From NCBI GenBank assembly GCA_046330315.1, contig JAXLSZ010000012.1, positions 398-64,397 of the forward strand: 64,000 bases of DNA. The letters run 5' to 3'. This document shows positions 1,780 through 43,299 of this stretch, one piece after another. The stretch comes from Solirubrobacterales bacterium (GTDB lineage: Bacteria; Actinomycetota; Thermoleophilia; Solirubrobacterales; 70-9). The translations under genes and the position numbers were made by a program. The notes under the pieces were generated by a model. The model was given only the letters and a program-made list of their open reading frames with translations. It was not told the DNA's origin and made no database searches. Positions within the stretch are counted from its first letter, which is position 1, and each line of letters begins with the position of its first letter.

Positions 1780-4239
1780 TCAGCGGTGCCCCTTGAACGA
1801 GATCACCTGCTGGATCCCGCTCGGGCGGTTCGTGTAGCGCATGGTCAGCAGGTTGAGCGGAGTGAAGTGGATCTGCTCCGCGGTGGCGCTCGCCCTCCAG
1901 GCGCTCGGATCGGAGGTCCCCTGGTCGGCGGTCAGCTCGGTGCCCGCCGCCGCCAGCGCGTTCCAGACCGCCTTGCGGCAGGCGCTCTTGCTGCCCTTCC
2001 CGCAGTAGCGGTTGGCGAAGGGCTGGGGCACCCTGTCTCCGAGCAGCCGGTGGATGTCGCGGTCGAAGTACTGGTACCAGCCCGAGTACTGACCGCCGGG
2101 CGGCTGATCGAAGCGCGAGAACAGCGAAGCCAGCTCGTCGAGCTGGGACCCCATCCACGGCTTCATGAAGGCGTCGGCGATCTTCGGCCAGGCGGCGTCC
2201 ATGATCGCGGCGCCGGGGTCGTCGATCTTGCCGTCGAGGTCCTTGTCGAGCCGGCTGCCGCCGTGGCTGCGCCAGGCGGCCAGCAGGTCCAGCATCTGCT
2301 GGGCCTGGGCGTTGGGCGGGGCGGAGCCCTGCAGCAGGCGGCGCAGCAGCGGCACCGTGTCGATCGCCCTCACGTCCTGGGTCGCGGCGGCGTTCATCGC
2401 AGAGGTCACCGACGCCAGGCTCCACTTGCCGTTCTTCACAAGCCGGTCGAGGTTGTAGTTGAGCAGGTCGACCCGGGCGGCCGAACCGTTCCGACCCCAC
2501 TCGTCGTCGGCCGCGCCGAAGCCGTGGGCGACGCTGTTGTTCCAGTTGACGATCCGGCCGTTGCGCGGATCGGTGCCGTGAGGGTGGCCGTTCTTGGAGA
2601 GGAAGCCGCGCCACTCGTAGCGGCCGGTTCCCTTCGCCGGGAGGCCCGGGTCGACGTTGCGCTCCCGGATCGGCAGCAGCCCGCTCGTGTACTCGGCGAT
2701 GTGCTTGCTGTCGATGTAGAACGAGTTGAAGGTCTGCGGGGTCTTCGAGGCGGCCTCGAAGAACGTCTTGGGGCTCTTCACCGAGCCGTTCGAGAGCCGG
2801 CGGTTGAAGAGCAGGTCGAGGACGTCCTTGCCGTAGCTCGAGCGCTTCGCCGCGAGCGCGACCTTGCGGCCCTGGACCTTGGCGTAGCCGATCACGGGAC
2901 CGTGGACCGTGGTCAGGAAGCTGACCTGCTGGGTCCCGTCCAGGACACCGGCGTTGAAATGGCCCATCTTGCGGCACTTGCCCTTGAAGAGGTAGCGCTC
3001 GCTGCTGCCGCCGCAGAGGGTCTCGGCGAACTGGTCGATCACGTCGCCGCTTGCGGATGTCAGGGTGGTCGCGAAGTCCTGGCCGCGACCGATCAGCAGG
3101 TAGCCGGGGAAGGGCGCCGAGGTGGCGCCTCGCCAGACGAGGTGCGGCGCGTCCATGTCGATCTCGTAGGTGAGGCCCGGGTAGAAGTAGCCGATCTGGG
3201 GCCCGCCGACCATCAGCGGCTTGCCGGTGTTCGAACGCCGGCCGCTGATCATCAGTGTGTTCGAGGCCTGCCGGCGCTCCAGCGCCGGGCGGGCCGCGCG
3301 CGGCACCCTGGAGACCGCCGGGGTCGCCTGGAAGCTGCCGGAGTCGAGGATCACGCTCCCGGAGTGGTTCTTCGGCACGCGCTCGTAGGGGAACTTGCCG
3401 TCGATCGAGGTCGGGCTACCGGCGTTGGTCTGCTGGCGGAGGTCGTTGAAGACACTCCAGGCTCGCTTCGAGCCGAGTCGCTTGCGCAGGCCCCCGAGGA
3501 ACTGCGAGCGGCGTGCCTCGTCGCCGCCGCCCTCGCCCAGGAACTGGTCCTTCAGCGCGTTGACCGCGTAGACGTCGTTGCGCGTCCAGGGCGCGGTCGA
3601 GGGGCTGTGAATCGCCAGGTAGTCGTTGATGCCGGAGATGAAGGTGTCGATGTCGCGCAGCACCGCGCGACCCTCCTTGCCGGCGTTCTTGAGCACCTGG
3701 GTCTGCTTGGCGACTTCGGCCTCGGTGCGCGGGCTGGGGGCGAAGGAGTGAAGCCCGGCGACAAGCCCGATCGCGCTCAGGCCCGGCGCGTCGATCGCCG
3801 CCACGCGGGCGTTGTAGCGGGCCTGCTGGAGCAGCAGGCCGCGGTCCTCGGCGGCGATCCAGCCGGCCGCCCAGATACCACCCGAGTAGGTGGTGGCGTG
3901 GACGTGCGGCACGTTGTAGGCGTCACGTGTGATGGTCACGCCGGCCTTTGGGACCGGCTCGTTGGTCCCGGGGCCGTCGGTGCCGAGCCCCAGCGCCTCG
4001 GACTTGAAATAGGTGGTGAGGTCCGAGTTGCCGACCTGGTCGAAGAGCGGGGTCAGCCCGTCGTACATCTGGGCCTGCTTGGTCGTGGCGGGGGTGACAG
4101 CGCCGCTCCCGTACTGTCCCGACGGGATGATGTTGAGCGCCGTCGCCGCGTAGTCGGTCGGGCCGCCGTCGGCCGCCGCCATGGCGGGAACCGCCAGCGC
4201 GCCGCCGAGAACCAAAACCAACGCCAAGAACCGTCGCAC
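1780..4239 (-). CDS. Penicillin acylase family protein (Ntn-hydrolase, peptidase S45), secreted.
   Basis: ORF 1780..4314 shows family-typical blocks: NVPHVHA, IWAAGWIAAEDRG, the ASNTLMISGRRSNTGKPLMVGGPQ nucleophile region, and WRGFLSKNGHPHGTDP. The GTG at 4239 is preceded by GAGAGGAGA (Shine-Dalgarno-like ribosome-binding site) and followed by a signal peptide (RRFLALVLVLGGALAVPAMA). Confidence 0.9.
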   Translation of the reverse strand: MRRFLALVLVLGGALAVPAMAAADGGPTDYAATALNIIPSGQYGSGAVTPATTKQAQMYDGLTPLFDQVGNSDLTTYFKSEALGLGTDGPGTNEPVPKAGVTITRDAYNVPHVHATTYSGGIWAAGWIAAEDRGLLLQQARYNARVAAIDAPGLSAIGLVAGLHSFAPSPRTEAEVAKQTQVLKNAGKEGRAVLRDIDTFISGINDYLAIHSPSTAPWTRNDVYAVNALKDQFLGEGGGDEARRSQFLGGLRKRLGSKRAWSVFNDLRQQTNAGSPTSIDGKFPYERVPKNHSGSVILDSGSFQATPAVSRVPRAARPALERRQASNTLMISGRRSNTGKPLMVGGPQIGYFYPGLTYEIDMDAPHLVWRGATSAPFPGYLLIGRGQDFATTLTSASGDVIDQFAETLCGGSSERYLFKGKCRKMGHFNAGVLDGTQQVSFLTTVHGPVIGYAKVQGRKVALAAKRSSYGKDVLDLLFNRRLSNGSVKSPKTFFEAASKTPQTFNSFYIDSKHIAEYTSGLLPIRERNVDPGLPAKGTGRYEWRGFLSKNGHPHGTDPRNGRIVNWNNSVAHGFGAADDEWGRNGSAARVDLLNYNLDRLVKNGKWSLASVTSAMNAAATQDVRAIDTVPLLRRLLQGSAPPNAQAQQMLDLLAAWRSHGGSRLDKDLDGKIDDPGAAIMDAAWPKIADAFMKPWMGSQLDELASLFSRFDQPPGGQYSGWYQYFDRDIHRLLGDRVPQPFANRYCGKGSKSACRKAVWNALAAAGTELTADQGTSDPSAWRASATAEQIHFTPLNLLTMRYTNRPSGIQQVISFKGHR

Positions 4240-5840: not shown

Positions 5841-5896
5841 CCGGCGGCGCTTGCGCGCCGCGCCGAAGGGCCGCCTCCCGGGGCCCAGCCAGCGCC

Positions 5897-6064
5897 GCCG
5901 CCTGCCTGCGCCGTGGTGCCGCCGCCTGCCTGCGCCGTGGTGCCGCCGCCTGCCTGGGCCGTGGTGCCGCCGCCTGCCTGCGCCGTGGTGCCGCCGCCTG
6001 CCTGCGCCGTGGTGCCGCCGCCTGCCTGCGCCGTGTCGCCGCCGCCTGCCTGGGCCTCGCCGGC
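5897..6064. repeat. Tandem repeat, 24-bp unit gccgcctgcctgcgccgtggtgcc, about 7 copies.
   Basis: Read directly. Copies start at 5897, 5921, 5945, 5969, 5993, 6017 and 6041. Four are identical, two have 1-3 substitutions, and the last is degenerate. The period is 8 codons, giving RRRHHGAG or GGTTAQAG repeats depending on frame. Confidence 0.9.
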
Positions 6065-7442: not shown

Positions 7443-7588
7443 GGGGTCTCGCCGGGCTCCGAATCGCCCTTTGGTCTCGCGGGGGCACGTTTGCCGGCCG
7501 GGGTATCGCAGGGGCACGTCCGCCGGCTGGGGTCTCGCCGGGCTCCGAATCGCCCTTTGGTTTCGCGGGGCACGTTTGCCGGCCGGGG
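7443..7588. repeat. Direct repeat, two ~60-bp copies with an 86-bp period.
   Basis: 7443..7503 and 7529..7588 share ggggtctcgccgggctccgaatcgccctttggtYtcgcgggg(g)cacgtttgccggccgggg. The spacer is a degenerate partial copy. The repeat sits in the divergent intergenic region between the redoxin operon and the Usp gene. Confidence 0.85.
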
Positions 7589-7743
7589 TTTGGCCGGGCC
7601 CATTTCGCCCGCCGGGGTAGGGCGGGCGGTCCAGCGCGAGCGCGGCCGGCACGCCGGGGGCGGCCCCTTGCGGGGTCCATCTCGATGGGCAATAGTCTCC
7701 ACCTGCCCACCTGCCCACCTGCCTGACGACAGAGAGGAGTGCG

Positions 7744-8324: not shown

Positions 8325-9266
8325 GTGCCGGCGATCGCCGGCCTCGGGGACACCTGGGAGCGACTGGGCCGAGGCGACCCGCTTTGGCTGACCGCCGCGC
8401 TCGGGCTCGAGATCATCTCCTTCGCGGCCTACGCGGCGCTGTTCCGGACCGCCTTCGACTCCCCCGACCTGCGGATCGGCTGGGGAGGCAGCGCGAGGAT
8501 CACGCTGGCGGGCGTGGCCGCAACGCGCCTGCTCGCGATGGCCGGGGTCGGCGGGATAGTGCTGACGGTCTGGGCGCTGCGCAGGCTGGGAATGGCCGGG
8601 GGCGAGGTGACCCGGCGGCTCGCGACCTTCCTGATCCTCCTCTACGCGGTCTACATGGCGGCCCTGGTGGTGGGCGGCGTGGGCCTCCGCAGCGGCCTGC
8701 TGGCCGGCCCCGCGCCATTCGCCCTCACGGTCCTGCCGGCGGTCTTCGGCGCCCTGGTGATCGCCGCCGCCCTGGTGATCGCAGCCGTCTCCGGCGACCT
8801 CGACCAGGCGCTCGCCCGGGTCTCGGCGGCCCGGGGGCGGGGGGCCCGCTGGGCGGCGGCGCTCGCCACGGCCCCGGCGACCCTCTCTTCGGGAGTGAAG
8901 GGGGCTCTGGGCCTGCTGCGCACCCGCGATCCGGGGCTGCTGGGGGCTGTGGGCTGGTGGGCGTTCGACGTCGGCGTGCTCTGGGCCTGCCTGCGCGCCT
9001 TCGGGGGCGAGGCGACGATCGCGGTCGTCGTCATGGCCTACTTCGTCGGCATGCTGGCGAACGTCCTCCCGGTTCCCGGCGGCATCGGCGCCGTGGACGG
9101 CGGCATGGTCGGAGCGCTGATCGGATTCGGCGTCAGCGGCGGCCTCGCCCTGGTGGCCGTGCTCAGCTACCGGGCCTTCTCGTTCTGGATACCCACGGTC
9201 CCCGGGGCGGTCGCCTACGCGCAGCTCCTGCGCGAGCCGCCGGCGAACGACGGAGCCCAGCGCTGA
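8325..9266 (+). CDS. Flippase-like / lysylphosphatidylglycerol-synthase-TM-region family (UPF0104) membrane protein. True start probably upstream.
   Basis: ORF 8325..9266 is multi-pass hydrophobic and has the family-like MAYFVGMLANVLPVPGGIGAVDGGMVGAL block. The same frame stays open upstream and encodes a typical first helix (RRLALSIALAVGAIVSLYVL) with no ATG/GTG/TTG. Confidence 0.65.
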   Translation: MPAIAGLGDTWERLGRGDPLWLTAALGLEIISFAAYAALFRTAFDSPDLRIGWGGSARITLAGVAATRLLAMAGVGGIVLTVWALRRLGMAGGEVTRRLATFLILLYAVYMAALVVGGVGLRSGLLAGPAPFALTVLPAVFGALVIAAALVIAAVSGDLDQALARVSAARGRGARWAAALATAPATLSSGVKGALGLLRTRDPGLLGAVGWWAFDVGVLWACLRAFGGEATIAVVVMAYFVGMLANVLPVPGGIGAVDGGMVGALIGFGVSGGLALVAVLSYRAFSFWIPTVPGAVAYAQLLREPPANDGAQR

Positions 9267-9323
9267 CCCACCGGGGCCGCGTTCCCCTTGGCCCACGACG
9301 GTGCGGGTAGATCGCGGGCCGGC

Positions 9324-9449
9324 AGGGCGGGCCCATCGGGGCAGGGCGGGCCCTCGCGGGCTTCCAGGGCGGGCCCATCGGGGCAGGGCGGGCCCTCGCG
9401 GGCTTCCAGGGCGGGCCCATCGGGGCAGGGCGGGCCCTCGCGGGCTTCC
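9324..9449. repeat. Perfect tandem repeat, 42-bp unit x3, plus degenerate flanking copies.
   Basis: Unit agggcgggcccatcggggcagggcgggccctcgcgggcttcc at 9324, 9366 and 9408. A diverged copy follows to ~9498. Located between the membrane-protein stop (9266) and the radical SAM start. Confidence 0.9.
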
Positions 9450-9498
9450 ACGGCGGGTCCATCGCGGGTCGGCAGCTCGGGACCCGCGGGCCGACAGG

Positions 9499-10947
9499 AT
9501 GAATCCATTGCGGGTCGCAAGGGTCGGATCGAACGCAACCATGCAGACTGCAGACTCCCCACCGGCGAGCCACAGGCTCGGAGCGACCCGGTCGGCCTGC
9601 CCGCAGTGCCGGCGAGTACTCGACGCCGAAATCCTCCAGCGTGCCGGGCGGGTCGTGCTCTCTCGCGAGTGCCCCGAGCACGGCCGCTTCGAGGCGGTCG
9701 TCTACGGGGACGCCAGGAGGTATCTGGAGATCCAGCGCTTCTCGAAGCCGGGCGCGGCGCCGCTGAGCCGGCAGACCGAATCGCAGCGCGGGTGCCCGCA
9801 CGACTGCGGGATCTGCCCACAGCACGCCCAGCACACCTGCCTCGGGATCATCGAGGTCAACACCGCCTGCAACCTCGACTGCCCGATCTGCTTCGCCGAG
9901 TCGGGGACCGGCCAGAACGGAAACGGATACGCGCTGGCGCTCGCGGAGGTGGAGTCGATGCTGGACGCCTTCGTCGCCGCCGAGGGCAGCCCCGAGGCGG
10001 TCCAGATCTCGGGAGGGGAGCCGTCCATCCACCCCCAGATCCTCGAGATGCTGGGTGCGGCCAGGCAGCGGGGCATCCCCCTGGTGATGCTGAACACCAA
10101 CGGGATACGGCTCGCCCGCGACCCCCGCTTCGCCGCGGCGCTGGCCGAACTGGGGGTGCACGTGTACCTCCAGTTCGACGGACTCGAGGAGGCCACCCAC
10201 ACTGCGATCCGCGGCAGGCCGCTGCTCGACGAGAAGCTGCGCGCCCTCGAGCGCTGCTCGGAGGAGGGCGTGAGCGTCTCCCTGGCGACGGCCATCGAGC
10301 GCAACCTCAACGATCACGAGGCCGGGCCGATCGTCCGGTTCGGCATCGAGCACCCGGCGGTCACCGGTGTCTTCTTCCAGCCGGTGACCCACTCCGGGCG
10401 ATTCCTCGCGGCGAGTGACCCATTGGAAAAGCTGACCAACTCGGACGTGATCGAAGCGATCGCCGAGCAGCTTCCCGAGTGGTTTCGGCCCGACGACTTC
10501 GTCCCCGTCCCCTGCTGCTCGCCGACCTGCCGCTCGGCCACCTTCGCGCTCTGTGACGGGCGGGACGTGATCCCGCTGCCCCGGCTCGTCGACGTCGAGG
10601 ACTACCTCGACTACGTGACCAACCGGGCTGTGCCGGACTTCTCGGTGCGCGATGCGCTGGAGGGGCTGTGGTCGGCGAAGGCGGCCGGGGGAAGCGGCCC
10701 GGTCGCCGCGCGGCTCGAATGCGTCGCCTGCTCCACGGCGATCCCCGCCGAGCTACGGGAGGTGGCGGCCCGGGGCTTCATGATCGTGATCCAGGACTTC
10801 CAGGACCCCTACACGCTCGACGTCGAGAAGCTTCGCAAGTGCTGCGTCTCGGAGATCACGCCCGATGGCAGGCTCATCCCTTTCTGTGCCTACAACTCGT
10901 TCGGCTACCGGCAGCAGGTCAGGGAGTGGCGGTCGAGCCTGAGCTGA
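9499..10947 (+). CDS. Radical SAM enzyme with multiple Fe-S clusters (COG1964-type; same layout as archaeal tetraether lipid synthase Tes/GDGT-MAS).
   Basis: ORF 9301..10947, whose first ~66 aa are repeat DNA. Features: an N-terminal Cys-rich ribbon CPQCRRVL...ECPEHG; an auxiliary cluster motif GCPHDCGICPQHAQHTC; the canonical CNLDCPICF (CxxxCxxC); ISGGEP; and C-terminal Cys clusters (PVPCCSPTC, ECVAC, KCCVSE...FCAYN). Start is the ATG at 9499 or 9541. Confidence 0.8.
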   Translation: MNPLRVARVGSNATMQTADSPPASHRLGATRSACPQCRRVLDAEILQRAGRVVLSRECPEHGRFEAVVYGDARRYLEIQRFSKPGAAPLSRQTESQRGCPHDCGICPQHAQHTCLGIIEVNTACNLDCPICFAESGTGQNGNGYALALAEVESMLDAFVAAEGSPEAVQISGGEPSIHPQILEMLGAARQRGIPLVMLNTNGIRLARDPRFAAALAELGVHVYLQFDGLEEATHTAIRGRPLLDEKLRALERCSEEGVSVSLATAIERNLNDHEAGPIVRFGIEHPAVTGVFFQPVTHSGRFLAASDPLEKLTNSDVIEAIAEQLPEWFRPDDFVPVPCCSPTCRSATFALCDGRDVIPLPRLVDVEDYLDYVTNRAVPDFSVRDALEGLWSAKAAGGSGPVAARLECVACSTAIPAELREVAARGFMIVIQDFQDPYTLDVEKLRKCCVSEITPDGRLIPFCAYNSFGYRQQVREWRSSLS

Positions 10948-11714
10948 CCGCCGCCTGCGCGACCGCCTACGCCCACCCCGCGGTGCGGTGGCTGCTGGGC
11001 GGCGAGCTCCACCCCGGAGGAAGCGGGGCGACCCGCCGCGCCCTCGAGCTGATCTCGCTCGAGCCCGGCGAGACCCTCCTGGACGTGGCGTGCGGCGACG
11101 GCGCCTCGGCGATGCTCGCGGCCCGGGAGTTCGGCTGCCTCGCCGCCGGGCTCGAGTGCGCACCCGGGGCGGTGGCGGAGGCCCAGAGCGCGGCCGAGTC
11201 GGTGGGGCTCGGCGACCGCGCCGCGTTCATCCACGGCGATGCCCATGCACTCCCCTTCGGGGAGGGCTCCTTCGACGCGGTGCTGTGCGAGTGCGCGCTA
11301 TCCACCTTCCCCGATCCCGCGGCCGCCCTCGCCGAGATCCACCGGGTGCTGCGGCCGGGCGGCCGGGTGGCGATCAGCGACGTCACCACCGATCCGGGAC
11401 GGCTTCCCGCCGCCCTGCTGGGCGCCCTCGGAGGGGTGGCCTGCGTGGCCGGAGCGCGTTCGGCGGCGGGGTATGAGCTGCTGCTCGGCGAGTCCGGCTT
11501 CGAGCCGATCGCGACCGAGCGGCGGGACGACGACGCGGCGGCGATGGCCGCCCGGGCGATCGACCGGCTGCGGGGCGCCCGCCTGCTGGGCTTCGGCGAC
11601 CTCAGCGTCGCCGGGTTCGACCTCGACGACGCCCTCGAGCTGGGGAAGCTGGCGCAGCGCGCGATCGACGACGGGGCGCTCGGCTACGCGATCCTGGCGG
11701 GGAGGCGCCGGTGA
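10926..11714 (+). CDS. Class I SAM-dependent methyltransferase.
   Basis: In the frame of ORF 10668..11714. The GTG at 10926 overlaps the radical SAM gene end by 22 nt. Motif I is LLDVACGDGASA, and HRVLRPGGRVAISD follows. The N-terminus reads CATAYAHPAVRWLLGGELHPGG. Confidence 0.8.
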   Translation: MAVEPELTAACATAYAHPAVRWLLGGELHPGGSGATRRALELISLEPGETLLDVACGDGASAMLAAREFGCLAAGLECAPGAVAEAQSAAESVGLGDRAAFIHGDAHALPFGEGSFDAVLCECALSTFPDPAAALAEIHRVLRPGGRVAISDVTTDPGRLPAALLGALGGVACVAGARSAAGYELLLGESGFEPIATERRDDDAAAMAARAIDRLRGARLLGFGDLSVAGFDLDDALELGKLAQRAIDDGALGYAILAGRRR

Positions 11715-12463
11715 GCCGGGTCGCGATCCTCAACCGGCCCGGCGCCGAGCCCTCGCTCGGCGCGGTCGAGCTCTCCCGCCGGCTGCTCGGCGAAGCACGC
11801 TCCGTTTCACGGCCCGAGGAGTGCGCTCGACTGACCCGCCTCGCCGGGCAGCTCTCCGGGGTCGACCCGACCGGAATCGAGGGCGACGCCGAGCGGATCG
11901 CCTTCTGGCTGAACCTCTACAACGCCCTCCTGCTCCACGGTCTCTGCCTGAGGCCGGTCCGGGGAAGCATGCTGCGCCACCTGCGGCTGTTCGGGCGTCT
12001 CGCCTACGAGGTGGGCGGCAGCGTCTGCACGCCCAACGTCATCGAGCACGGCGTCCTGCGCCGGAACAGCCGACCGCCGCTTCACCTGCGGCGAGCCCTG
12101 CGCGCTTCCGATCCAAGGGCGGCGAGCTCTCCGGCGCGCCTCGACCCCCGCATCCACTTCGCGCTCAACTGCGGCGCCCGCTCGTGCCCCCCGATCCGCG
12201 CCTACGACCCGGCGGCGCTCGACGAGCAGCTCGAGACCGCGACCTCCGCCTACTTTGCGGGGGAGGCGCGGGTCGATCGCGAGCGCTGCCGGGCCGTGCT
12301 CCCGCGGCTGATGCGCATCTACGCGAGCGACTTCGGGTCTCGCACCCGGCAGGTCGGGTTCGCGGCCCGCTACCTCCCCGAGCTCGAGGAGTGCCGCGGG
12401 CGGATCATGGTCCGCTACGGGCGCTTCGACTGGACCGCCGTGCCGGCTTCGCCGCTGCCCTAG
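11711..12463 (+). CDS. DUF547 domain-containing protein.
   Basis: ORF 11711..12463. The GTG start overlaps the methyltransferase stop (GTGA). Family-typical blocks: AFWLNLYNALLLH and IHFALNCGARSCPPIRAY. Confidence 0.75.
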   Translation: MSRVAILNRPGAEPSLGAVELSRRLLGEARSVSRPEECARLTRLAGQLSGVDPTGIEGDAERIAFWLNLYNALLLHGLCLRPVRGSMLRHLRLFGRLAYEVGGSVCTPNVIEHGVLRRNSRPPLHLRRALRASDPRAASSPARLDPRIHFALNCGARSCPPIRAYDPAALDEQLETATSAYFAGEARVDRERCRAVLPRLMRIYASDFGSRTRQVGFAARYLPELEECRGRIMVRYGRFDWTAVPASPLP

Positions 12464-12464
12464 C

Positions 12465-12623
12465 GGCACCTTCCGCGACGCGCAGACGGGCTCGCTGTGG
12501 AACATCAGCGGGCGGTCCACCGCCGGCCCGCTCGCCGGCGCGAACCTTCGCCAGCTGCCGAGCGACGACCAGTTCTGGTTCGCGCTGGCGGCCTTCTTCC
12601 CCCGGGTCGAGATCAGGCGCTGA
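12465..12623 (+). pseudogene. C-terminal remnant (52 codons) of a DUF3179-like gene.
   Basis: Manual translation gives GTFRDAQTGSLWNISGRSTAGPLAGANLRQLPSDDQFWFALAAFFPRVEIRR*. It has no start codon and no upstream continuation. It begins 2 nt after the DUF547 stop. It resembles the DUF3179 C-terminus (ETGS.W...G.A..GPL.G..L...FWFAW.AF.P) as I remember it. Confidence 0.4.
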
Positions 12624-12634
12624 CGGCAGGCGGT

Positions 12635-13069
12635 CTACTTGCCGTGCTCCGCCCGCGCCCGCTTCCCGGCCAGCAGCCCGAGATTCGAGACGACGAACGG
12701 CACGAGGTAGTTGAGCCCGGCCCTGATCCAGGTGCCGGTCGTTGCGCCGCCGCCGAGGATCACGTCGGCCTGGTTGACGATCGTCAGGACGGTGCCGACC
12801 ACGAGGGCGATGCGGGTCGTCCGGCGCAGGTGCTCGCGGCGCAGGCAGACCCCAAGGGCCTCTCCCAGCGCCCGCTCGGCGCTCCTCCCGCGGGCGCCGG
12901 CGAGCGTGAACCGTTTCGGCGGCGCGGGGGTCGAACCTGCACCATGGCCCGAGTGCTCGAGACCACCGCGCTGCGACTGCTGATCAGCGCAGGCTTCCTC
13001 GGCGCCTCGCTGCTCGTCTTCGAGCGGTTCTGCCTGAGCTGCTGATGCCGGGAAGGGCAGCGCAACCAC
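12635..13069 (-). CDS. NrtS-like small membrane protein (nitrate/nitrite transporter NrtS family core at the C-terminus). Start uncertain.
   Basis: C-terminal part of ORF 12635..13222: RRTTRIALVVGTVLTIVNQADVILGGGATTGTWIRAGLNYLVPFVVSNLGLL. In-frame starts are the GTG at 13069 (1 nt after the dehalogenase stop) or the GTG at 12802 (55 aa). Confidence 0.45.
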   Translation of the reverse strand: MVALPFPASAAQAEPLEDEQRGAEEACADQQSQRGGLEHSGHGAGSTPAPPKRFTLAGARGRSAERALGEALGVCLRREHLRRTTRIALVVGTVLTIVNQADVILGGGATTGTWIRAGLNYLVPFVVSNLGLLAGKRARAEHGK

Positions 13070-13070
13070 C

Positions 13071-13928
13071 TCAACCGAAGCGGCGGCGGATCGCGTCGGC
13101 GACGGCGCCGGACGCATCCTCCTGGAAGTAGTGCCTCGCCTCCGGAAGCCTGACCAGGCGGGCGTCCTCGAACGCGGCCTGCACCCGTGGAAGGACCCGC
13201 CTCGCGGGGAAGGCGAGGTCACGCATCGGCCAGGTGATCAGCACCGGCTTCGAGCCCAACCTGCTCCTGACCTCGCTTGCGAGGCGGTCCAGCCAGGGAG
13301 CGGCGGCACGGATCTGGCGCGGGAACTCGGCAACCCCCACCCTGGCGTCGGGAGTGGGCTGAACCGCCCGGTAGTGCTCCATCTCGGAGGCGCTGAGCTC
13401 GCGGACGACGCCGAAGGGGATGATCCGCTCGACGAAGAGGTTCCGCCTGCGAATCGCCCACTGAAGCGGCGGACTCGACATCGCCGCGCTGAACGCGCGG
13501 AAGGCGCGGTCGGGAGCCCAGAACCATGTGTTTCCGAGGACCAGCCCGGCGACCCGGTCGGGCCGGGCGGCGGCGACCGAGGTGCCGATCGGGCCACCCC
13601 AGTCGTGCCCCATCACGATCGCATCGCCGAGGCCGAGCTCCTCGACCAGCTCGCCCACCACCGCGGCGTGCTCGGGGGGCGTGTAGCGGTAGGCCGGCGG
13701 GCGCTCGGAGAGACCGAAGCCCGGGTAGTCGACGGCCACGCACCGGAAGTCGTCGCGGAGCTCAGCGATCAGGTGCCGGTAGAGGAACGCCCAGGTCGGG
13801 TTTCCGTGCAGGACCACGAGGGGGCGCCCGCTTCCCTCGTCGACGTAGTGGACTCGCCCCGCGGAGCTCCCGAACCAGCGCGACTCGAACGGGAACAGCG
13901 TCGGGGATGGCGTGAAGTCTGGAACCAC
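13071..13928 (-). CDS. Haloalkane dehalogenase-like alpha/beta hydrolase.
   Basis: C-terminal 286 codons of ORF 13071..14885: GRPLVVLHGNPTWAFLYRH, VMGHDWGGPIG, WFW, ...ARHYFQED. GTG start at 13928 (VVPDFTPSPTLFPFESRWF). Confidence 0.8.
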   Translation of the reverse strand: MVPDFTPSPTLFPFESRWFGSSAGRVHYVDEGSGRPLVVLHGNPTWAFLYRHLIAELRDDFRCVAVDYPGFGLSERPPAYRYTPPEHAAVVGELVEELGLGDAIVMGHDWGGPIGTSVAAARPDRVAGLVLGNTWFWAPDRAFRAFSAAMSSPPLQWAIRRRNLFVERIIPFGVVRELSASEMEHYRAVQPTPDARVGVAEFPRQIRAAAPWLDRLASEVRSRLGSKPVLITWPMRDLAFPARRVLPRVQAAFEDARLVRLPEARHYFQEDASGAVADAIRRRFG

Positions 13929-14293: not shown

Positions 14294-14945
14294 CGCGCAG
14301 CCCCCCGCCGCGCCTGAGGTGACCCGGAGCCGCTCCGGAAAGCCGGCAGGTGCAAGGCTTGGCGAGATGCCCCCGACCACCGCCGGCTCCGAGGCAGTGC
14401 TGGTCAAGCAGGCGCGGGAGGGCGACCGGCTCGCCTTCGAGAAGCTGGTGCGCCTTCACGCCGACCGCGTCTACGCGGTGGCGCTGCGCTTCCTCGGCGA
14501 TCCCGCCGATGCCGAGGAGGTGACCCAGGAGACCTTCCTGCGAGCCTGGCGGGGCATCGGCCGCTTCGAGGCCCGCTCGCAGTTCTTCACCTGGCTCTAC
14601 CGGATCGCCCTGAACGAGGCCAAGCGCCTGGCCGCCAGGCGACCTCCCGCCGGCCGGGTGCGCTCCCTGGAGGACGAGCCGATCCCGGATGCCCCCGACT
14701 GGAGCGATGCCCCGGAGGTGGGGGCCGGCCAGGCGGAGATCCGCTCCGTGCTGGAGGGGGCGATCCGCGAGCTCCCGATCGAGTACCGGGCGACGATCAT
14801 CCTGCGCGACGTCGAGGGGCTCTCGACGGCGGAGGCGGCGAGCGCGATGGAGCTCGGCGAGGCGGCTTTCAAGAGCCGGCTGCACCGGGCCAGGCTCGCG
14901 GTCCGCCGTAGCCTGGACCAGTACTTCATGGAGGAAGAGGCGTGA
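14286..14945 (+). CDS. ECF-type RNA polymerase sigma-70 family factor.
   Basis: In the frame of ORF 14103..14945: LVKQAREGDRLAFEKLVRLHADRVYAVALRFLGDPADAEEVTQETFLRAWRGIGRFEARSQFFTWLYRIALNE (region 2) and PIEYRATIILRDVEGLSTAEAASAMELGEAAFKSRLHRAR (region 4). ATG at 14286; an alternative ATG lies ~27 codons downstream. Confidence 0.85.
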   Translation: MADAQPPAAPEVTRSRSGKPAGARLGEMPPTTAGSEAVLVKQAREGDRLAFEKLVRLHADRVYAVALRFLGDPADAEEVTQETFLRAWRGIGRFEARSQFFTWLYRIALNEAKRLAARRPPAGRVRSLEDEPIPDAPDWSDAPEVGAGQAEIRSVLEGAIRELPIEYRATIILRDVEGLSTAEAASAMELGEAAFKSRLHRARLAVRRSLDQYFMEEEA

Positions 14946-15211
14946 TTCGGCGGCTGTTCGGGCAGATGCGCTACATGCGCGAGCACCGCTGGACCCACTC
15001 CCACCTCTCGGAGTACCTCGACGCGGAGCTCGACGCGCCCGGGAGGGCCCGGGTCGAGGAGCACGTCGGCATCTGCCCCCATTGCCACCGGGTCCTCGCG
15101 ACGCTGAGGCGGACCCTCGCGGGCCTGCGCGCGCTGCCGGCTGCGGCCGACCCGGGGCCGGAGGTCGCGGACGGCGTGATCGAGCGCCTGCGCGGCGAGG
15201 GCCGAAGCTGA
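14942..15211 (+). CDS. Small zf-HC2 (putative anti-sigma factor) protein, paralog of 14039..14293.
   Basis: ORF 14942..15211. The GTG overlaps the sigma stop (GTGA). REHRWTHSHLSEYLDAELDAPGRARVEEHVGICPHCHRVL aligns with the upstream small protein. Confidence 0.7.
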   Translation: MIRRLFGQMRYMREHRWTHSHLSEYLDAELDAPGRARVEEHVGICPHCHRVLATLRRTLAGLRALPAAADPGPEVADGVIERLRGEGRS

Positions 15212-15819
15212 CCGACTGGGACCGGCTCGCCCGCCTCTACGATCGCCAGCTGGCGCTGGAGCGTCCCGCCCTGCGGACGCTGCTGGAGATGCTGGACCCC
15301 GGCGAGGACGAGCGCCTGCTCGACATCGGCACCGGAACCGCGGCCCTGCTCCGCGAGCTCGCCCGGCGCCGGGACCGGCCGGCTCGGGCGGTCGGCCTCG
15401 ATCGCTCGCCGGCGATGCTGGCCCGGGCCGGGCCGATCCCGGCGGGATGGGAGCTGCTGCGCGGCGACGCGCGCCGGCTTCCCTTCGAATCCGGGAGCTT
15501 CGACGTGGCCACCGCCTCATACCTCCTGCACGTCGTCACCGCCGATGCCCGGGCCGCAATCCTCGGCGAGATCCACCGGGTCCTCGGGGCCGGGGGCCGG
15601 GTCGGCATGATCACGGTCGCCCCTCCGCGATCCCGCGTGGGCCTTGCTCTCTCCCGGCCGGTTCGGGCGGCGGCGGCGCGCTCCGATGGGGCCCTTGCCG
15701 GCCTTCGCCCGCTCGACCCGGGCCCGCTGCTTCGGGAAGCGGGCTTCGCGGCAACCGGCCGCCGCCGCGTCCTCCGGGGCTACCCGTCGCTCTGCGTCAC
15801 CGCGCTCAGACCTCGCTGA
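15208..15819 (+). CDS. Class I SAM-dependent methyltransferase (Methyltransf_11-like). Start unresolved.
   Basis: In the frame of ORF 14689..15819: WDRLARLYDRQLALERPALRTLLEMLDPGEDERLLDIGTGTAALL...HRVLGAGGRVGMI. The first canonical in-frame start is the ATG at 15289, yet family-like sequence begins ~15208, where only a CTG is available. Confidence 0.65.
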   Translation: MTDWDRLARLYDRQLALERPALRTLLEMLDPGEDERLLDIGTGTAALLRELARRRDRPARAVGLDRSPAMLARAGPIPAGWELLRGDARRLPFESGSFDVATASYLLHVVTADARAAILGEIHRVLGAGGRVGMITVAPPRSRVGLALSRPVRAAAARSDGALAGLRPLDPGPLLREAGFAATGRRRVLRGYPSLCVTALRPR

Positions 15820-15989: not shown

Positions 15990-16271
15990 TCATGGCCGCA
16001 CCTCAACTCCGTTCCAGAAGGCGACGTGGTTGCGGATCCTGCGGATCCAGGGGTACGGATGGCGGTAGGTCCAGGCGCCGAGGCGGCTGGTCTTTCCGCC
16101 CGCCTCGATCGTGTAGTAGCTGGCGAGACCCTTCCAGAAGCAGAGCGAGCGCATCGCGCTGCGCTTCAGGTAGCGGTGGTCGACGCTGTCGGGAGGGAAG
16201 TAGTGGTTTCCCTCGACAACCTTCGTGTCGTCGCTCTCGGCGAGGACCACTCCGTTCCATACTGCCTTCAT
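15990..16271 (-). CDS. DUF427 domain-containing protein.
   Basis: C-terminal 93 codons of ORF 15990..16619, from the ATG at 16271: MKAVWNGVVLAESDDTKVVEGNHYFPPDSVDHRYLKRSAMRSLCFWKGLASYYTIEAGG... Confidence 0.8.
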   Translation of the reverse strand: MKAVWNGVVLAESDDTKVVEGNHYFPPDSVDHRYLKRSAMRSLCFWKGLASYYTIEAGGKTSRLGAWTYRHPYPWIRRIRNHVAFWNGVEVRP

Positions 16272-16523
16272 TGCGAGGTCTCCGTTCTTCCTTCGTTTTC
16301 GATTTCTCGGCGCCTGACGGTGTGACCGCCCGGACGGGCGCGGGGATTCACGTCGCGGGCCAATCAACGGTCCGTGATCGAGGCGGGCGCGACCGCCGCC
16401 CCCCGCGCCGGGCGAGCTTTCTCGAGGAGTGCTGGGCGCCCTCGCGACGGCGCTCGGCACCCCGGGTTTCGTCGTTGCCCTCGACGATGAATCGAAGCGC
16501 CGCGACCCAGGGTCCAACCTCTC

Positions 16524-16952
16524 ATGCCACACGGCATCCGTCACGTACTCGTCATCCACGACGGCTCGAGCTCGGCGCGAAAGGCGCTCGTCGACGCGGC
16601 GACCATCGCCGATGAGCACGATGCGGAGATCTCCGTTGTGGCGCTGATCGATCGTCAGCCGGCCGAGGTCGGCTGCGCACGCTGCAGGCAGGCGACGGCC
16701 TACTGGAACGGGGTGCTGGAGGAGATGGCACAGGCCGACCTGGCCGAGGCCAGGGGAACCCTCGGCGAACGGGAGCCGGCGCCGCGATTCGAGATCGTCT
16801 CGGGAGCGGGCCCGAGCGGCGTCCGCCGCGCGGTCGCCCGGTTCGGATGCGACCTCGTGCTCGTGCCCGCGCGCGGTCCCTTCCGCGAGCGATTGGCGCG
16901 CCGGGTCCGGCGCCGCGTGACGGCGTCGGTCGTGGCTGTGAGCGCGAGCTGA
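16524..16952 (+). CDS. Universal stress protein family protein.
   Basis: ORF 16524..16952: IRHVLVIHDGSSSARKALVDAATIADEHDAEISVVAL...CDLVLVPARG. Confidence 0.65.
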   Translation: MPHGIRHVLVIHDGSSSARKALVDAATIADEHDAEISVVALIDRQPAEVGCARCRQATAYWNGVLEEMAQADLAEARGTLGEREPAPRFEIVSGAGPSGVRRAVARFGCDLVLVPARGPFRERLARRVRRRVTASVVAVSAS

Positions 16953-40380: not shown

Positions 40381-43299
40381 TCAGGGGACCTCGCGGCGGA
40401 GCCAGCCGCGGTAGAAGCCCTCCAGGTCGGGGAGGAACTCGTGGACCACCGGATAGCCCGGCGTCACCGCCTCGGTCTCCAGCAGCCGGCCCGAGACCGG
40501 GCAGTAGAACTCGCGCAGCTCCATCCAGTCCGGATCGCAGTGCGCCAGCCGCGGATAGACCTCCTCGAGGAGCTCGTCGGTGTCGCGGACGAAGACCGGC
40601 GCGTGCATCTTCCAGTTGCGGTCGTAGCGGCAGAAGTCGTGGCCCGCGTCCGAGCGGATCACCAGCTCCCGGTCGGAGCGGCGCCTCACCACGTTCAGCG
40701 CCTCGCCCACCGGCAGCACGATCGGATCGTCGTAGGGAACCCGCTCCTGGAGGACCGAGGTCCACTTCTCGAAGCGGTCGGGGTCCTTGTAGCCGGACTG
40801 GATGTCCTTGACCTCCAAGCGGGAGAGGCGCTCGTCCAGCAGCGCCGCCAGGGTCTCGCGCTCCAGCGGGCGGCCGGCGGCCCGCGGCGGCTCGACCTCG
40901 GAGACCTCGGAGGAGGACAGGAACGCGGCGGCGGACTCCTCGGGGGTGACCTTGCCGACCGGGGTGTCCACGGCGGCCGGGATGGTCGGCGTCTCGGCGT
41001 CGAATTCGAAGTCCTCTGGAAGGTCCCAGAAGCCACGGAACTCCGCCGCCCAGCGGGCGGAGAGCCTCATCGACTCCGCGTAGCCGACCTTGACGGGCTC
41101 GATCAGGTCGCCGGCCAGCACCCGTTCGCGCTCGCGCTGCCACCACTCCGCAGCCGGGACCGCGCGCTCCAGCCGCCGCTCCCGGGCCCGGGAGCGGCGC
41201 GCCTCGGGGCCGCCGCCGTCCTCGAAGCTGCCGCCCTCCTCGGGGCCGCGGCCGTCCTCGAGGCTGCCGCCCTCGGAGCCGCCGCCCATCTCGGGGCCGC
41301 CGCCCATCTCGGGGCCGCGGCCGTCTTCGAGGCCGACCGCGTAGACCGACTCGGCGAAGCGCGGCAGCAGGTGGCCCTCGGCCACGTCGCGGCGCACCGC
41401 CTCCGGGTCGCGCTCGAGCGGGTCGCCGAGGCCGGCCGCCCCCTTCATCACCGAGAGGTAGAGATCGCCGTTTGCGAAGGGCTCGAGAAGCGTCCAGTTG
41501 TCCAGTCCCAGGTTGCGCTCGCCCGCGATCCCGAGCAGCTCCGGCTCGTCGAAGGGGCCGTCGGCGAGCGGGTAGGCCTCGCCCGCCTCGGCCAGCTCGC
41601 GCAGGTTGTTCGCCTTGATGTTGTGGATGTAGGCCGCCGAGCCCGGGTAGCCGCCGAAGATCCCCTGCGAGGTGAAGAGCCTGGTGGTGCCGAGGTTCTG
41701 GAGCTCCCAGAAGGGCGTGTTCCAGATCATGTGCAGGGACTCGAAGCTGGAGCCGCCGCGATGGCGCCCGGGCCCTGAGGTGTTGGCCTTGATGCGGCGC
41801 GAGAGGTAGATCATCGGGCAGATCAGCTCCCACATCTCGACGTCGCCGGCGTCGCCCTCGGGATTGAACATCGCGGCGCAGGTGTCGGTGCCGTCGAGCA
41901 CGTACTTCGCGCCCATCCCCTGCGCGGCGATCTCGAAGTTCATGATCGCCGAGGAGTTTCCGTACTGGTCCACCCCGCCGCCCTGGATCACGTTCCCCGA
42001 CACCGAGTAGGACCCGATCACCTCCTCGATGAAGCCGCGTGACTGAAGCGCCCGCGAGAGGGTGCGCGGGTAGCCGGTGAAGGCCGGCTGCAGGAAGGCC
42101 CAGGCGATCCCGGTCGAGCCCTCGGCGTCGCCGAGATTGGCGATCGTCCCCTCCGGGAAGTTGGTCTTGACCGCGTAGTAGGCGCCGTCGTTGACCTTGT
42201 CGTTGCAGATCAGGGTCTGGGTGAACATCACCCAGATCGCTCCCTGCATCCCCGAGGGGGTGCAGTTCGCCGAGTGCCAGCCCCAGGCCGAGGCGCCGTC
42301 CATGTCGAGCTCGTAGTCGCCGTCTCCGCCGATCCGCACCTCGAAGGGCGCGTGCATGACGAAGTCGCGGCGGGCCCTCGCCGGAAGCTGGGGCTTGTCG
42401 GCGAAGGTCGTGTCCATGAAGGCGGCGGCGCGGTAGCGGCCCGGCACCGTCATCTCGCGGATCCGCGCCTTGAAGGAGCGCCGGCCCTCCTCGATAACCT
42501 CACGGCTGAAGCGCTTGAAGCGCTCGGCGCCCTCCTCGAGGACGACTCGCTCGACCGCCTCGCGGATCATGTGGCAGCCGGCCAGGCGGGTGCGCTCGTC
42601 GAGCAGGTAGTACATCGGCGCCCGGGTCTGCTTCTGGCAGCGCAGCAGGTGCCAGGCGGCGAGCTCGTCCTCCTCGCCGATCTTCATGCAGGGAAGGTCG
42701 ATGCCGTCGTCGAGGCGGTTGGTCGGGCCCACCGGGACCCCGCCCGGGGTCGAGGCGCCGATGTCCAGGACATGGGTGACGCCCCCGGCCCAGGCGATCA
42801 GCTCCCCCTCCCAGAAGATCGGCACGAAGGTCTGCACGTCGGCGTTGTGGACGTCGCCGATCACCGGGTCGTCGTTGGAGAAGATGTCGCCGGGGCGGAT
42901 CTTCGGGTTGTCCTCCCAGCCGTTTCGGACCATGAACTTGATCGCGTCCGACATCGTGTGGACGTGGACGATGATCCCGGTGGAGAGAGCGATCGAGTCC
43001 CCCTCGGGGGTGTAGAGCGCGAAGCAGAGCTCGCCTAGCTCGCGGACGATCGGCGAGGCCGAGATGTTCAACGCCGTCTCGCGGGCCGAAACCAGCCCCC
43101 CGCGCAGCCGCGCGAAGAGCTTCTCGTAGCCGATCGGGTCCGAGTCCTTCATCTCCAGCTCGGTGATCCCGTGGTAGTGGCCGGTCTCGGCGAAGAGGCT
43201 CTCCGAGGTGGCGAGCATCTCGTCCAGCCTCCGTCCGTCCCAGCCGATGCCCCCGCCCTCCCTGGGTTCCAGCCGGCGGCTCTCTTCGACCATCGCCAT
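40381..43299 (-). CDS. Acetone carboxylase alpha subunit-like (hydantoinase B/oxoprolinase family) fused to an acetone carboxylase gamma subunit-like domain.
   Basis: ORF 40381..43299 (972 aa). Hydantoinase-B-type body: GDVHNADVQTFVPIFWEGELIAWAGGVTHVLDIG, NPEGDAGDVEMWE, GPGRHRGGSSF. The C-terminal ~190 aa look like the gamma subunit: DFCRYDRNWKMHAPVFVRD...HCDPDWMELREFYCPVSGRLLETEAVTPGYPVVHEFLPDLEGF. A Gly/Glu-rich insertion is encoded at ~41204..41332. Confidence 0.75.
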   Translation of the reverse strand: MAMVEESRRLEPREGGGIGWDGRRLDEMLATSESLFAETGHYHGITELEMKDSDPIGYEKLFARLRGGLVSARETALNISASPIVRELGELCFALYTPEGDSIALSTGIIVHVHTMSDAIKFMVRNGWEDNPKIRPGDIFSNDDPVIGDVHNADVQTFVPIFWEGELIAWAGGVTHVLDIGASTPGGVPVGPTNRLDDGIDLPCMKIGEEDELAAWHLLRCQKQTRAPMYYLLDERTRLAGCHMIREAVERVVLEEGAERFKRFSREVIEEGRRSFKARIREMTVPGRYRAAAFMDTTFADKPQLPARARRDFVMHAPFEVRIGGDGDYELDMDGASAWGWHSANCTPSGMQGAIWVMFTQTLICNDKVNDGAYYAVKTNFPEGTIANLGDAEGSTGIAWAFLQPAFTGYPRTLSRALQSRGFIEEVIGSYSVSGNVIQGGGVDQYGNSSAIMNFEIAAQGMGAKYVLDGTDTCAAMFNPEGDAGDVEMWELICPMIYLSRRIKANTSGPGRHRGGSSFESLHMIWNTPFWELQNLGTTRLFTSQGIFGGYPGSAAYIHNIKANNLRELAEAGEAYPLADGPFDEPELLGIAGERNLGLDNWTLLEPFANGDLYLSVMKGAAGLGDPLERDPEAVRRDVAEGHLLPRFAESVYAVGLEDGRGPEMGGGPEMGGGSEGGSLEDGRGPEEGGSFEDGGGPEARRSRARERRLERAVPAAEWWQRERERVLAGDLIEPVKVGYAESMRLSARWAAEFRGFWDLPEDFEFDAETPTIPAAVDTPVGKVTPEESAAAFLSSSEVSEVEPPRAAGRPLERETLAALLDERLSRLEVKDIQSGYKDPDRFEKWTSVLQERVPYDDPIVLPVGEALNVVRRRSDRELVIRSDAGHDFCRYDRNWKMHAPVFVRDTDELLEEVYPRLAHCDPDWMELREFYCPVSGRLLETEAVTPGYPVVHEFLPDLEGFYRGWLRREVP

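Follow-up and report, generated by a model that had tools for sequence, protein, structure and literature searches.

We analysed a 64,000-nt stretch of DNA from a Solirubrobacterales bacterium (contig JAXLSZ010000012.1; hereafter the window), in which three consecutive, overlapping open reading frames (ORFs) on the + strand encode an enzyme of the radical S-adenosylmethionine (SAM) type (rSAM), a class I SAM methyltransferase (MT) and a DUF547 protein. We conclude that the core of this operon is a two-gene rSAM–MT module, an actinobacterial branch related to the TrsS/DVU_1556-MT module. Its conservation extends from Desulfotomaculum to Solirubrobacterales, and fused forms occur. Our confidence is high in the unit, its family placement and its stress-type neighbourhood, and low in its chemistry: tentatively, we propose a stress-induced two-enzyme module that would furnish a hydrophobic substrate with a methylated, thiophilic heteroatom.

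A conserved radical SAM–methyltransferase pair

The rSAM gene ends at a TGA codon (10945–10947) beyond the GTG start of the MT gene (10926), giving a 22-nt overlap; the MT gene stops at TGA 11712–11714 and the DUF547 gene, which ends at 12463, starts at GTG 11711, giving a GTGA overlap. Both overlaps had been given in a preliminary description of this DNA and agree with the ORF coordinates. The same description took the three genes for one functional unit, and they do form a tightly packed transcription unit, but the triad is not co-conserved. We scanned a single genome for each GTDB species and collected at least 80 loci (57–82% rSAM identity), and a metagenome scan seeded with sister clades gave at least 80 more (42–71%). 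The MT gene lay directly 3′ of the rSAM gene in 75 of 77 testable genome loci, from Solirubrobacterales, Gaiellaceae, Acidimicrobiia, Chloroflexota, Dormibacterota and Mycobacteriales, and it adjoined the rSAM gene in 66 of the 68 testable metagenome loci from the sister clades. DUF547, by contrast, took third place in 7 of the 70 genome loci that could be tested, all from Solirubrobacterales, and in none of the metagenome loci; a close homologue (L086 in our numbering of loci) was also found away from the pair. Three times as often as DUF547 (22 of 70 loci), the third position was held by an SRPBCC/Polyketide_cyc2 protein (PF10604) of ~198 aa with an N-terminal transmembrane helix. With the MT near-invariant and DUF547 a rare third gene that also occurs alone, we conclude that the conserved unit is the rSAM–MT pair and that DUF547 is an optional, lineage-restricted accessory. 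The preliminary description had pointed to conservation of the triad across genomes as a check on its view, and to lack of it as one of two grounds for giving that view up; what we found is an almost invariably linked pair and no co-conserved triad.

The rSAM gene (9541–10947, + strand) encodes a 468-aa multi-cluster enzyme with the GDGT-MAS/Tes/TrsS architecture, as judged from Pfam, NCBIfam, the PDB and a structural model. Its start is probably ATG 9541, and not ATG 9499 as first described. A database protein from a Solirubrobacterales metagenome-assembled genome (MAG), P0001, is 100% identical to the window protein and 468 aa long, a length that places the start at 9541, and ATG 9499 is doubtful because it lies inside the −35 element of a promoter-like sequence of the extracytoplasmic function (ECF) sigma type. 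A look-up with the exact window rSAM sequence returned no record, and close homologues were used instead. The protein exceeds two Pfam cut-offs, with 57.4 bits for PF23545 (the “HMPTM” zinc ribbon; cut-off 27) and 83.6 bits for PF04055 (cut-off 29.5), and the cysteine motifs pointed out earlier (CPQC...CPEH, GCPHDCGICPQHAQHTC and CNLDCPICF) are all present and kept in 81 orthologues. It aligns over its full length with GDGT-MAS (PDB entry 7TOL; E 7.6e-76, 30% identity), and its AlphaFold model superposes on 7TOL with template modelling (TM) scores of 0.77/0.73 over 488 columns (Foldseek E 4.8e-36), the next-best fold being MoaA (TM 0.40). Given this alignment and superposition, the earlier placement of the enzyme with COG1964 and Tes was right at the level of architecture.

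At the level of the family, the picture differs. The best NCBIfam match is TrsS (NF045646; 351.4 bits in one full-length stretch, cut-off 490), followed by Tes (NF045702; 324.8 bits in two aligned stretches, cut-off 450). In a midpoint-rooted neighbour-joining (NJ) tree of 126 family members, built without support values, the window protein groups with relatives from Gaiellaceae, Acidimicrobiia, Chloroflexota, Dormibacterota and Mycobacteriales in a clade of their own, which has bacterial sister groups; GDGT-MAS and TrsS lie elsewhere. Cysteines common to all rSAM clades are those of the N-terminal Cys3His ribbon (C20, C23, C44), auxiliary cluster 1 (C85, C89, C92; motif CX3CX2C, plus C100 in the window protein), the radical SAM cluster (C110, C114, C117; CX3CX2C) and auxiliary cluster 2 (C330, C434, C449). 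The bacterial clades, with TrsS among them, have C100 and C325, which are absent from the Tes clade; the window's clade invariably has C326, C394 and C397, the last two being invariant in the sister groups too. All five (Cys100, 325, 326, 394 and 397) are invariant in the window clade and absent from the 7TOL clade. We therefore rejected the protein as a Tes orthologue, given its score below the cut-off, its separate clade and its extra invariant cysteines; judged from its sequence, no named enzyme is its orthologue. The clade numbers more than 5,000 homologues, its lineage is abundant in soil metagenomes, and annotation pipelines label members of the family “tetraether lipid synthase” or “pterin dimethyltransferase”.

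The MT gene (10926–11714, + strand) encodes a class I SAM MT of 262 aa (Pfam Methyltransf_11/25/31), as the preliminary description had it. Its best NCBIfam match is the DVU_1556 family (NF045667), at a borderline 142.1 bits against a cut-off of 155 (an orthologue at L062 reached 140.5), and the second is the arsenite MT ArsM (NF008823), at 99.2 bits against 263. Three cysteines are conserved across 80 orthologues: Cys11 (99%), Cys123 (97%) and Cys173 (93%). In alignment, Cys123 and Cys173 correspond to the ArsM cysteines of the NCV and GEC(L)xGA motifs (CmArsM Cys174/Cys224) with identical spacing, 50 residues, and the local motifs are kept as well; Cys11 may be the counterpart of ArsM Cys44. 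Compared with the ArsM structures 4FR0 and 5EVJ, the protein thus shares the class I fold, the cysteine pair and an N-terminal cysteine, and differs in its score, in lacking the GCG motif that carries Cys72 and in lacking the C-terminal ArsM domain. Its best PDB sequence matches are other small-molecule MTs, MitM first. The MT is accordingly assigned, by motif and alignment, to a family with a predicted ArsM-like thiolate pair; what did not stand is the view of it as a generic or lipid-type enzyme, since it keeps the metalloid-binding cysteine pair of ArsM and is not of the lipid C-methylase type.

The link to TrsS extends to gene order and gene fusion. In one natural fusion (P0188), the N-terminal half is a DVU_1556-family MT (248 bits, cut-off 155) and the C-terminal half a TrsS (698 bits, cut-off 490). 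True TrsS members scored 618–698 bits, and their loci (L083–L085) came from Desulfotomaculum nigrificans, Desulfoluna and an Ardenticatenaceae MAG, hence from Bacillota, Desulfobacterota and Chloroflexota. In all three, an MT, a C_GCAxxG_C_C protein and TrsS lie together in a cluster with a molybdenum hydroxylase of the xanthine dehydrogenase (XDH) family, an Fe–S/FAD oxidoreductase, DUF7479 and an AMP-binding enzyme; L083 and L084 additionally have XdhC, a MocA-like NTP-transferase+HD protein and a histidine phosphatase. The MTs of these loci show the same three-cysteine pattern and C-terminal GY.LL motif as the window MT. Fusions in the wider rSAM family include NTP_transf_3+rSAM, rSAM+AMP-binding, rSAM+DUF5714 and LGT+rSAM. 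The P0188 fusion, the true TrsS loci and the fusions that mirror these loci indicate that rSAM–MT coupling is ancient, and NCBIfam already contains it. The earlier statement that no described pathway couples such an enzyme to a class I MT is thus outdated for the pair, for which curated families (NF045646 and NF045667) exist. TrsS is listed in a review under Haft & Tolstoy 2025, mSystems, with a bioinformatic description only. Our literature search on DVU1554–1557 gave no match, and we found no description of the window's actinobacterial-and-related clade in the literature searched.

The actinobacterial branch is distinct from these loci in keeping the pair alone, in reversed order and in a different neighbourhood. 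Both systems share the rSAM domain layout, Cys100/Cys325, the MT features given above and an rSAM and MT that are always neighbours and sometimes fused. Unlike TrsS, the window type scores below both cut-offs (351/490 and 142/155), has no C_GCAxxG_C_C gene between the two genes and has a second cysteine pair (C394/C397) in place of the TrsS CxC. It occurs in aerobic soil Actinomycetota, whereas TrsS occurs in anaerobes, and molybdenum-hydroxylase, XdhC, MocA and AMP-ligase neighbours are replaced by ECF/ZAS regulators, thioredoxin, disulfide reductase, ars/mer genes, Lgt, and SRPBCC or DUF547. Of the genes that surround true TrsS (XDH-family enzyme, XdhC, MocA-like+HD, AMP-binding and C_GCAxxG_C_C), none emerged as a recurrent ORF cluster when ±6 kb around the pair was compared across the 80 genome loci, nor did the window show any. 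The window pair fails the score tests for Tes, TrsS, the DVU_1556 MT and ArsM, yet shares defining features with each.

The third gene of the operon (11711–12463, + strand) encodes a DUF547 protein of 250 aa (PF04784; 115.5 bits, gathering cut-off 27) with an NCGARSCP sequence within an invariant FALNCGA.SCP motif that contains two cysteines. Its AlphaFold model (predicted local distance difference test, pLDDT, 90.2; predicted TM score, pTM, 0.89) had no significant PDB match (Foldseek E 2.9 at best), a PDB sequence search found no relative and the literature on DUF547 yielded plant expression papers only, so that none of these searches gave a functional lead. The comparison nevertheless gives DUF547 a bacterial context, as one of two alternative accessories of the module.

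Promoter and genomic neighbourhood

A scan of positions 9200–13200 for sigma-70 promoters and intrinsic terminators found none, and we therefore searched for ECF-type motifs. A promoter-like element (TGAATCC-N16-GGTCGGA; 9500–9528, + strand) ends 13 nt before ATG 9541, and a second (TGAACCG-N16-GGTCGAA; 12907–12935, + strand) precedes a small ORF; the same element stands before the homologous small ORF in the related locus L002. The motif TGAAYC-N15-18-GGTCKRA thus has 2 matches in the window against 0.07 expected. Across the 80 genome loci the strict motif occurred 10 times in 1.77 Mb, mostly 5′ of the rSAM gene or the sigma operon, and at 16 of 76 loci the 180 nt upstream of the rSAM gene held a relaxed form, of which 0.02 copies would be expected for each such upstream stretch.

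Downstream of the operon, an ECF sigma factor (14358–14945, + strand; start approximate) is followed by an anti-sigma factor (14942–15211, + strand) of the zf-HC2 type, short and cytoplasmic and bearing an HxxxCxxC (ZAS) motif, assigned from ORF and domain analysis and neighbourhood comparison. Orthologues of the sigma factor (59–75% identity), together with such a short anti-sigma factor, were found near the pair in at least 20 loci, the window (14358–15211) included. We infer from the motif and this adjacency that the neighbouring ECF sigma factor probably has the operon in its regulon. The small ORF behind the second element (12942–13045, + strand; 33 aa, MARVLETTALRLLISAGFLGASLLVFERFCLSC) is conserved and hydrophobic with a C-terminal CxxC; in relatives it lies directly before the sigma/anti-sigma genes, as does the L002 homologue (14331–14435), and it may encode a co-regulated membrane peptide or part of a sensing system.

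Other recurrent neighbours point to redox and metal(loid) functions or to the membrane. A thioredoxin gene lies directly upstream of the pair in 6 loci, and many metagenome loci have, directly upstream, a class I pyridine-nucleotide disulfide oxidoreductase with the motif GGDCTWTGCVPSK. The common form of this reductase was rejected as MerA (378 bits against a cut-off of 454, no C-terminal CC); only the L019 copy passes. Also recurrent were a DF-family (seleno)protein, CcdA/TlpA, DUF427, DUF3179 and a second MT. Clusters of ArsR, ArsI/CadI, aquaporin and ArsC genes adjoin the pair in L060, L061, L062, L064, L069, L072, L076 and L082, mostly from Acidimicrobiia and in at least four arrangements; at L076, ArsR is directly 5′ on the same strand. 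One Gaiellaceae locus (L073) has a MerB-like gene and an ArsR-type regulator, and L019 combines an ArsM-like gene (3167–4015), a MerA above the cut-off and an ArsR-type regulator with the partner MT. L028 is the only long locus without the partner MT after the rSAM gene; an ArsM-like gene (3051–3812) lies ~2 kb upstream and may be a functional substitute. ArsM-like genes match the partner MT at 29–38% identity in 69 loci. When ars/mer, SRPBCC and DUF3179 genes were sought across the window by tblastn, only the partner MT and a DUF3179 remnant were found.

An Lgt gene whose product passes the cut-off lies ~46 nt upstream of the rSAM gene in 7 Acidimicrobiia loci (among L061–L072), and two Lgt–rSAM fusions (P0149, P0233) represent two other, separate clades. 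The recurring link is thus to a membrane enzyme that uses phosphatidylglycerol. We regard SRPBCC, Lgt and DUF547 as hydrophobic-ligand or membrane accessories, of which SRPBCC and Lgt support a link to hydrophobic molecules or lipids.

Proposed chemistry and competing readings

Two precedents bear on what the pair might do. In Tes, the first substrate radical is parked on an auxiliary-cluster sulfur, and an archaeol–sulfur adduct has been detected (PMC13459092). The rSAM–MT pairs ArsL–ArsM and ArsS–ArsM build C–As compounds, and ArsL binds arsenic via C-terminal cysteines (bioRxiv 10.64898/2026.04.29.721666). From the features of the pair and its surroundings we infer a substrate class, a heteroatom, an order of steps and a mode of regulation, as follows. 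The rSAM enzyme, built like GDGT-MAS, would use its 5′-deoxyadenosyl radical to take a hydrogen from an unactivated C–H in a substrate that is hydrophobic and probably a lipid alkyl chain. The resulting carbon radical would, as in Tes, be captured on a thiophilic atom, which could be a cluster sulfide or a heteroatom (S, Se or As(III)) bound by the additional invariant cysteines. No second C–C coupling would follow; the C–X product would be handed to the partner MT, which would clamp the heteroatom between Cys123 and Cys173, the ArsM-type pair, and methylate it. Thioredoxin or the disulfide reductase would recycle the cysteines, and handling or delivery of the hydrophobic molecule, be it substrate or product, would fall to the DUF547 or SRPBCC protein. 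In Solirubrobacterales, the module would be transcribed from the ECF-sigma promoter within a thiol or metal(loid) stress neighbourhood. On this proposal the pair would be a compact two-enzyme system with plausible links to organo-sulfur, -selenium or -arsenic chemistry.

Several observations weigh against it. About 70 of the 80 loci and the whole window are without an ars or mer gene, so the metalloid signal is lineage-restricted and could be inherited synteny. The missing Cys72 (GCG(N)P motif) is replaced by HPGG throughout the MT family; in ArsM, this cysteine is needed for As(III) and not for MAs(III). The MT cysteine pair could also serve otherwise, for example as a redox switch or in protein–protein contact. 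In the rSAM model, residues 323–401 are the sole part with pLDDT <50 and are also divergent, and because the extra cysteines fall in this region, no geometry of their site can be claimed. The placement of the rSAM clade comes from a tree without support values, and the putative promoter was assigned from a consensus-like motif only. The pair has no characterised close relative, and both proteins fall below every curated equivalog cut-off. Finally, true TrsS modules sit in a molybdenum-hydroxylase/XdhC/MocA cluster, which points to cofactor chemistry rather than to lipid or metalloid chemistry.

This last observation suggests a cofactor-related role for the TrsS branch, and the same could hold for the window pair, which would then modify a cofactor (such as a pterin/dithiolene or another metal centre) or a Cys-rich protein or peptide. 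Besides the XDH-family enzyme, XdhC, MocA-like+HD, AMP-binding and C_GCAxxG_C_C neighbours of true TrsS, this reading draws on the family fusions with NTP_transf_3 and AMP-binding domains, on Cys100 and Cys325, common to TrsS and not found in Tes, and on the conserved small CxxC peptide gene in the neighbourhood. We nonetheless consider it unlikely, as ORF clustering around the pair (±6 kb; 80 genome loci) found no molybdenum-enzyme or maturation gene, the actinobacterial clade is apart from TrsS in the tree and below its cut-off, and the SRPBCC and Lgt associations favour a hydrophobic substrate.

A second possibility is biosynthesis or detoxification of organoarsenicals or other metalloid compounds, in which the rSAM enzyme would make a C–As bond from a carbon radical and As(III) and the ArsM-like MT would methylate the alkyl-As(III), as ArsL–ArsM (arsinothricin) and ArsS–ArsM (arsenosugars) do. 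The likeness lies in an rSAM gene beside an ArsM-type MT with metalloid-binding cysteines, and such pairs are often found in ars islands (PMC8552651). The ArsM cysteine pair is kept and ArsM-like genes match the MT in 69 loci; ars clusters stand beside the pair in eight loci and at least four arrangements, with ArsR directly 5′ at L076, and L019 unites an ArsM-like gene, MerA and an ArsR-type regulator. The vicinal CC and CxxC motifs gained in the rSAM protein recall the arsenic-binding C-terminal cysteines of ArsL, and thioredoxin and disulfide-reductase neighbours would fit the reductant need expected from established ArsM enzymology. Yet ars/mer neighbours occur in only ~10 of 80 loci, mostly from one class, and none is in the window; the MT reaches 99 bits against the ArsM cut-off of 263, which makes it no ArsM member by score, and is without a Cys72 equivalent. 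ArsL and ArsS were not among the rSAM matches listed, and they transfer a SAM-derived fragment (3-amino-3-carboxypropyl or 5′-deoxyadenosyl) to arsenic, whereas activation of a substrate C–H is what one would expect of a Tes-like enzyme. TrsS relatives sit with molybdenum enzymes and not with ars genes, and the regulator in Solirubrobacterales is an ECF sigma/ZAS anti-sigma pair, not ArsR. On balance this, too, seems improbable.

A bolder version of our own proposal would make the pair a third rSAM route to carbon–metalloid bonds, in which a Tes-like radical on a terminal or unactivated lipid carbon adds to As(III), Se or Te held on the extra cysteines and the ArsM-like MT methylates the product to ω-(methyl)arsenic lipids. 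We judge this quite unlikely. If it were true, abundant soil Actinomycetota would have a biosynthetic route for long-chain lipids with a methylated arsenic group, and many “bacterial Tes homologues” would not be tetraether synthases. We know of no such route for methylated-arsenic long-chain lipids.

The reading towards which the preliminary description leaned is that of a membrane-spanning-lipid synthase: the rSAM enzyme would join two fatty-acyl or alkyl tails by their ends, of the branched glycerol dialkyl glycerol tetraether (brGDGT) or diabolic-acid type, the MT would add methyl branches and DUF547 or SRPBCC would assist. Full-length homology to GDGT-MAS (7TOL/7TOM) and the same fold (TM 0.77), with the Cys3His ribbon, the CX3CX2C auxiliary and radical SAM motifs and the C-terminal cluster cysteines in common, agree with it, and the window enzyme may share the parking of a substrate radical on cluster sulfur. 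A role as brGDGT synthases has been proposed for Tes homologues of bacteria (PMC8941075; PMC10087280). Lgt adjacency and fusions, the SRPBCC partner, the flippase-like gene upstream in the window and the abundance of the lineage in soil metagenomes also fit. The window rSAM is, however, only 30% identical to GDGT-MAS, falls below the Tes cut-off (325/450) and outside the GDGT-MAS clade, has a divergent 323–401 segment and carries four to five extra invariant cysteines (Cys100/325/326/394/397) absent from the Tes clade. Its obligatory partner, for which the literature searched mentions no equivalent in Tes, is an ArsM-like cysteine-pair MT and not a lipid C-methylase of the CFA/UfaA type, and the ECF stress promoter and redox/metal neighbours are unlike those of housekeeping lipid synthesis. 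Tes homologues were present in only 3 of 14 iso-diabolic-acid-producing Acidobacteria (PMC13159169), the literature searched held no functional test of any bacterial Tes homologue, and we found no link between Solirubrobacterales and brGDGTs in the literature. We therefore hold a lipid-synthase role to be doubtful.

Bacterial Tes homologues serve as genomic markers for the producers of brGDGT palaeoclimate lipids. The existence of a large soil clade tied to an ArsM-like cysteine-pair MT and a stress sigma factor, and not to lipid-synthesis genes, calls for caution with Tes annotations and with inferences drawn from them.

Flanking DNA and minor features

The preliminary description had noted a perfect 42-bp repeat in three copies upstream of the operon and a gene remnant downstream, and both hold. 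The tandem repeat (9323–9450; 42 bp, exact, 3.05 copies; array 9312–9464 with 3.6 copies at 95% in TRF) is intergenic, between a flippase-like gene and the rSAM gene, and is probably non-coding and outside the functional unit. The 42-mer had no copy in 168 related loci and is private to the window's genome. Counting this array, the window has five GC-rich tandem arrays, the others being at 5894–6056 (24 bp ×6.8), 7473–7626 (29 bp ×5.4), 41202–41340 (18/36 bp) and 61182–61263 (39 bp ×2.1). They look like a genome-wide habit of the organism and not a mark of the operon. The flippase-like gene itself (8325–9263) was rejected as a member of the unit, as it is not conserved beside the pair.

The downstream remnant can now be named: it is the 3′ end of a DUF3179 gene (12465–12623, + strand), namely the last 52 codons (12465–12620) and the stop codon (12621–12623), found by tblastn with 71% identity (E 6e-20). 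The relatives L002 and L087 have an intact DUF3179 gene behind DUF547, and the remnant is the record of a local deletion. In the window, and not in L002, the small ORF is separated from the sigma gene by a haloalkane-dehalogenase-like alpha/beta hydrolase gene (13074 to ~14000, − strand; 405 bits against the NF002873 cut-off of 466). The deletion and the presence of this gene in the window and not in L002 speak for local rearrangement of the region. Of the two origins first suggested, acquisition or local rearrangement, the second is thus borne out by the deletion. Acquisition, or an origin from a mobile element, was rejected because the GC content of the operon resembles that of the window (0.725 versus 0.709), the operon neighbourhood is syntenic with relatives, the 42-mer is private and such arrays are common in the window.

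Beyond the anti-sigma gene lies a second class I MT gene, MT2 (15229–15819, + strand), which recurs beside the pair in several loci, upstream or downstream, and an ORF on the opposite strand (15990–16619, −) clusters with DUF427 proteins. MT2 and the DUF427-cluster ORF are also found close to the pair elsewhere in Solirubrobacterales (L004, L029, L039 and L088), and both may be in the same regulon as the pair.

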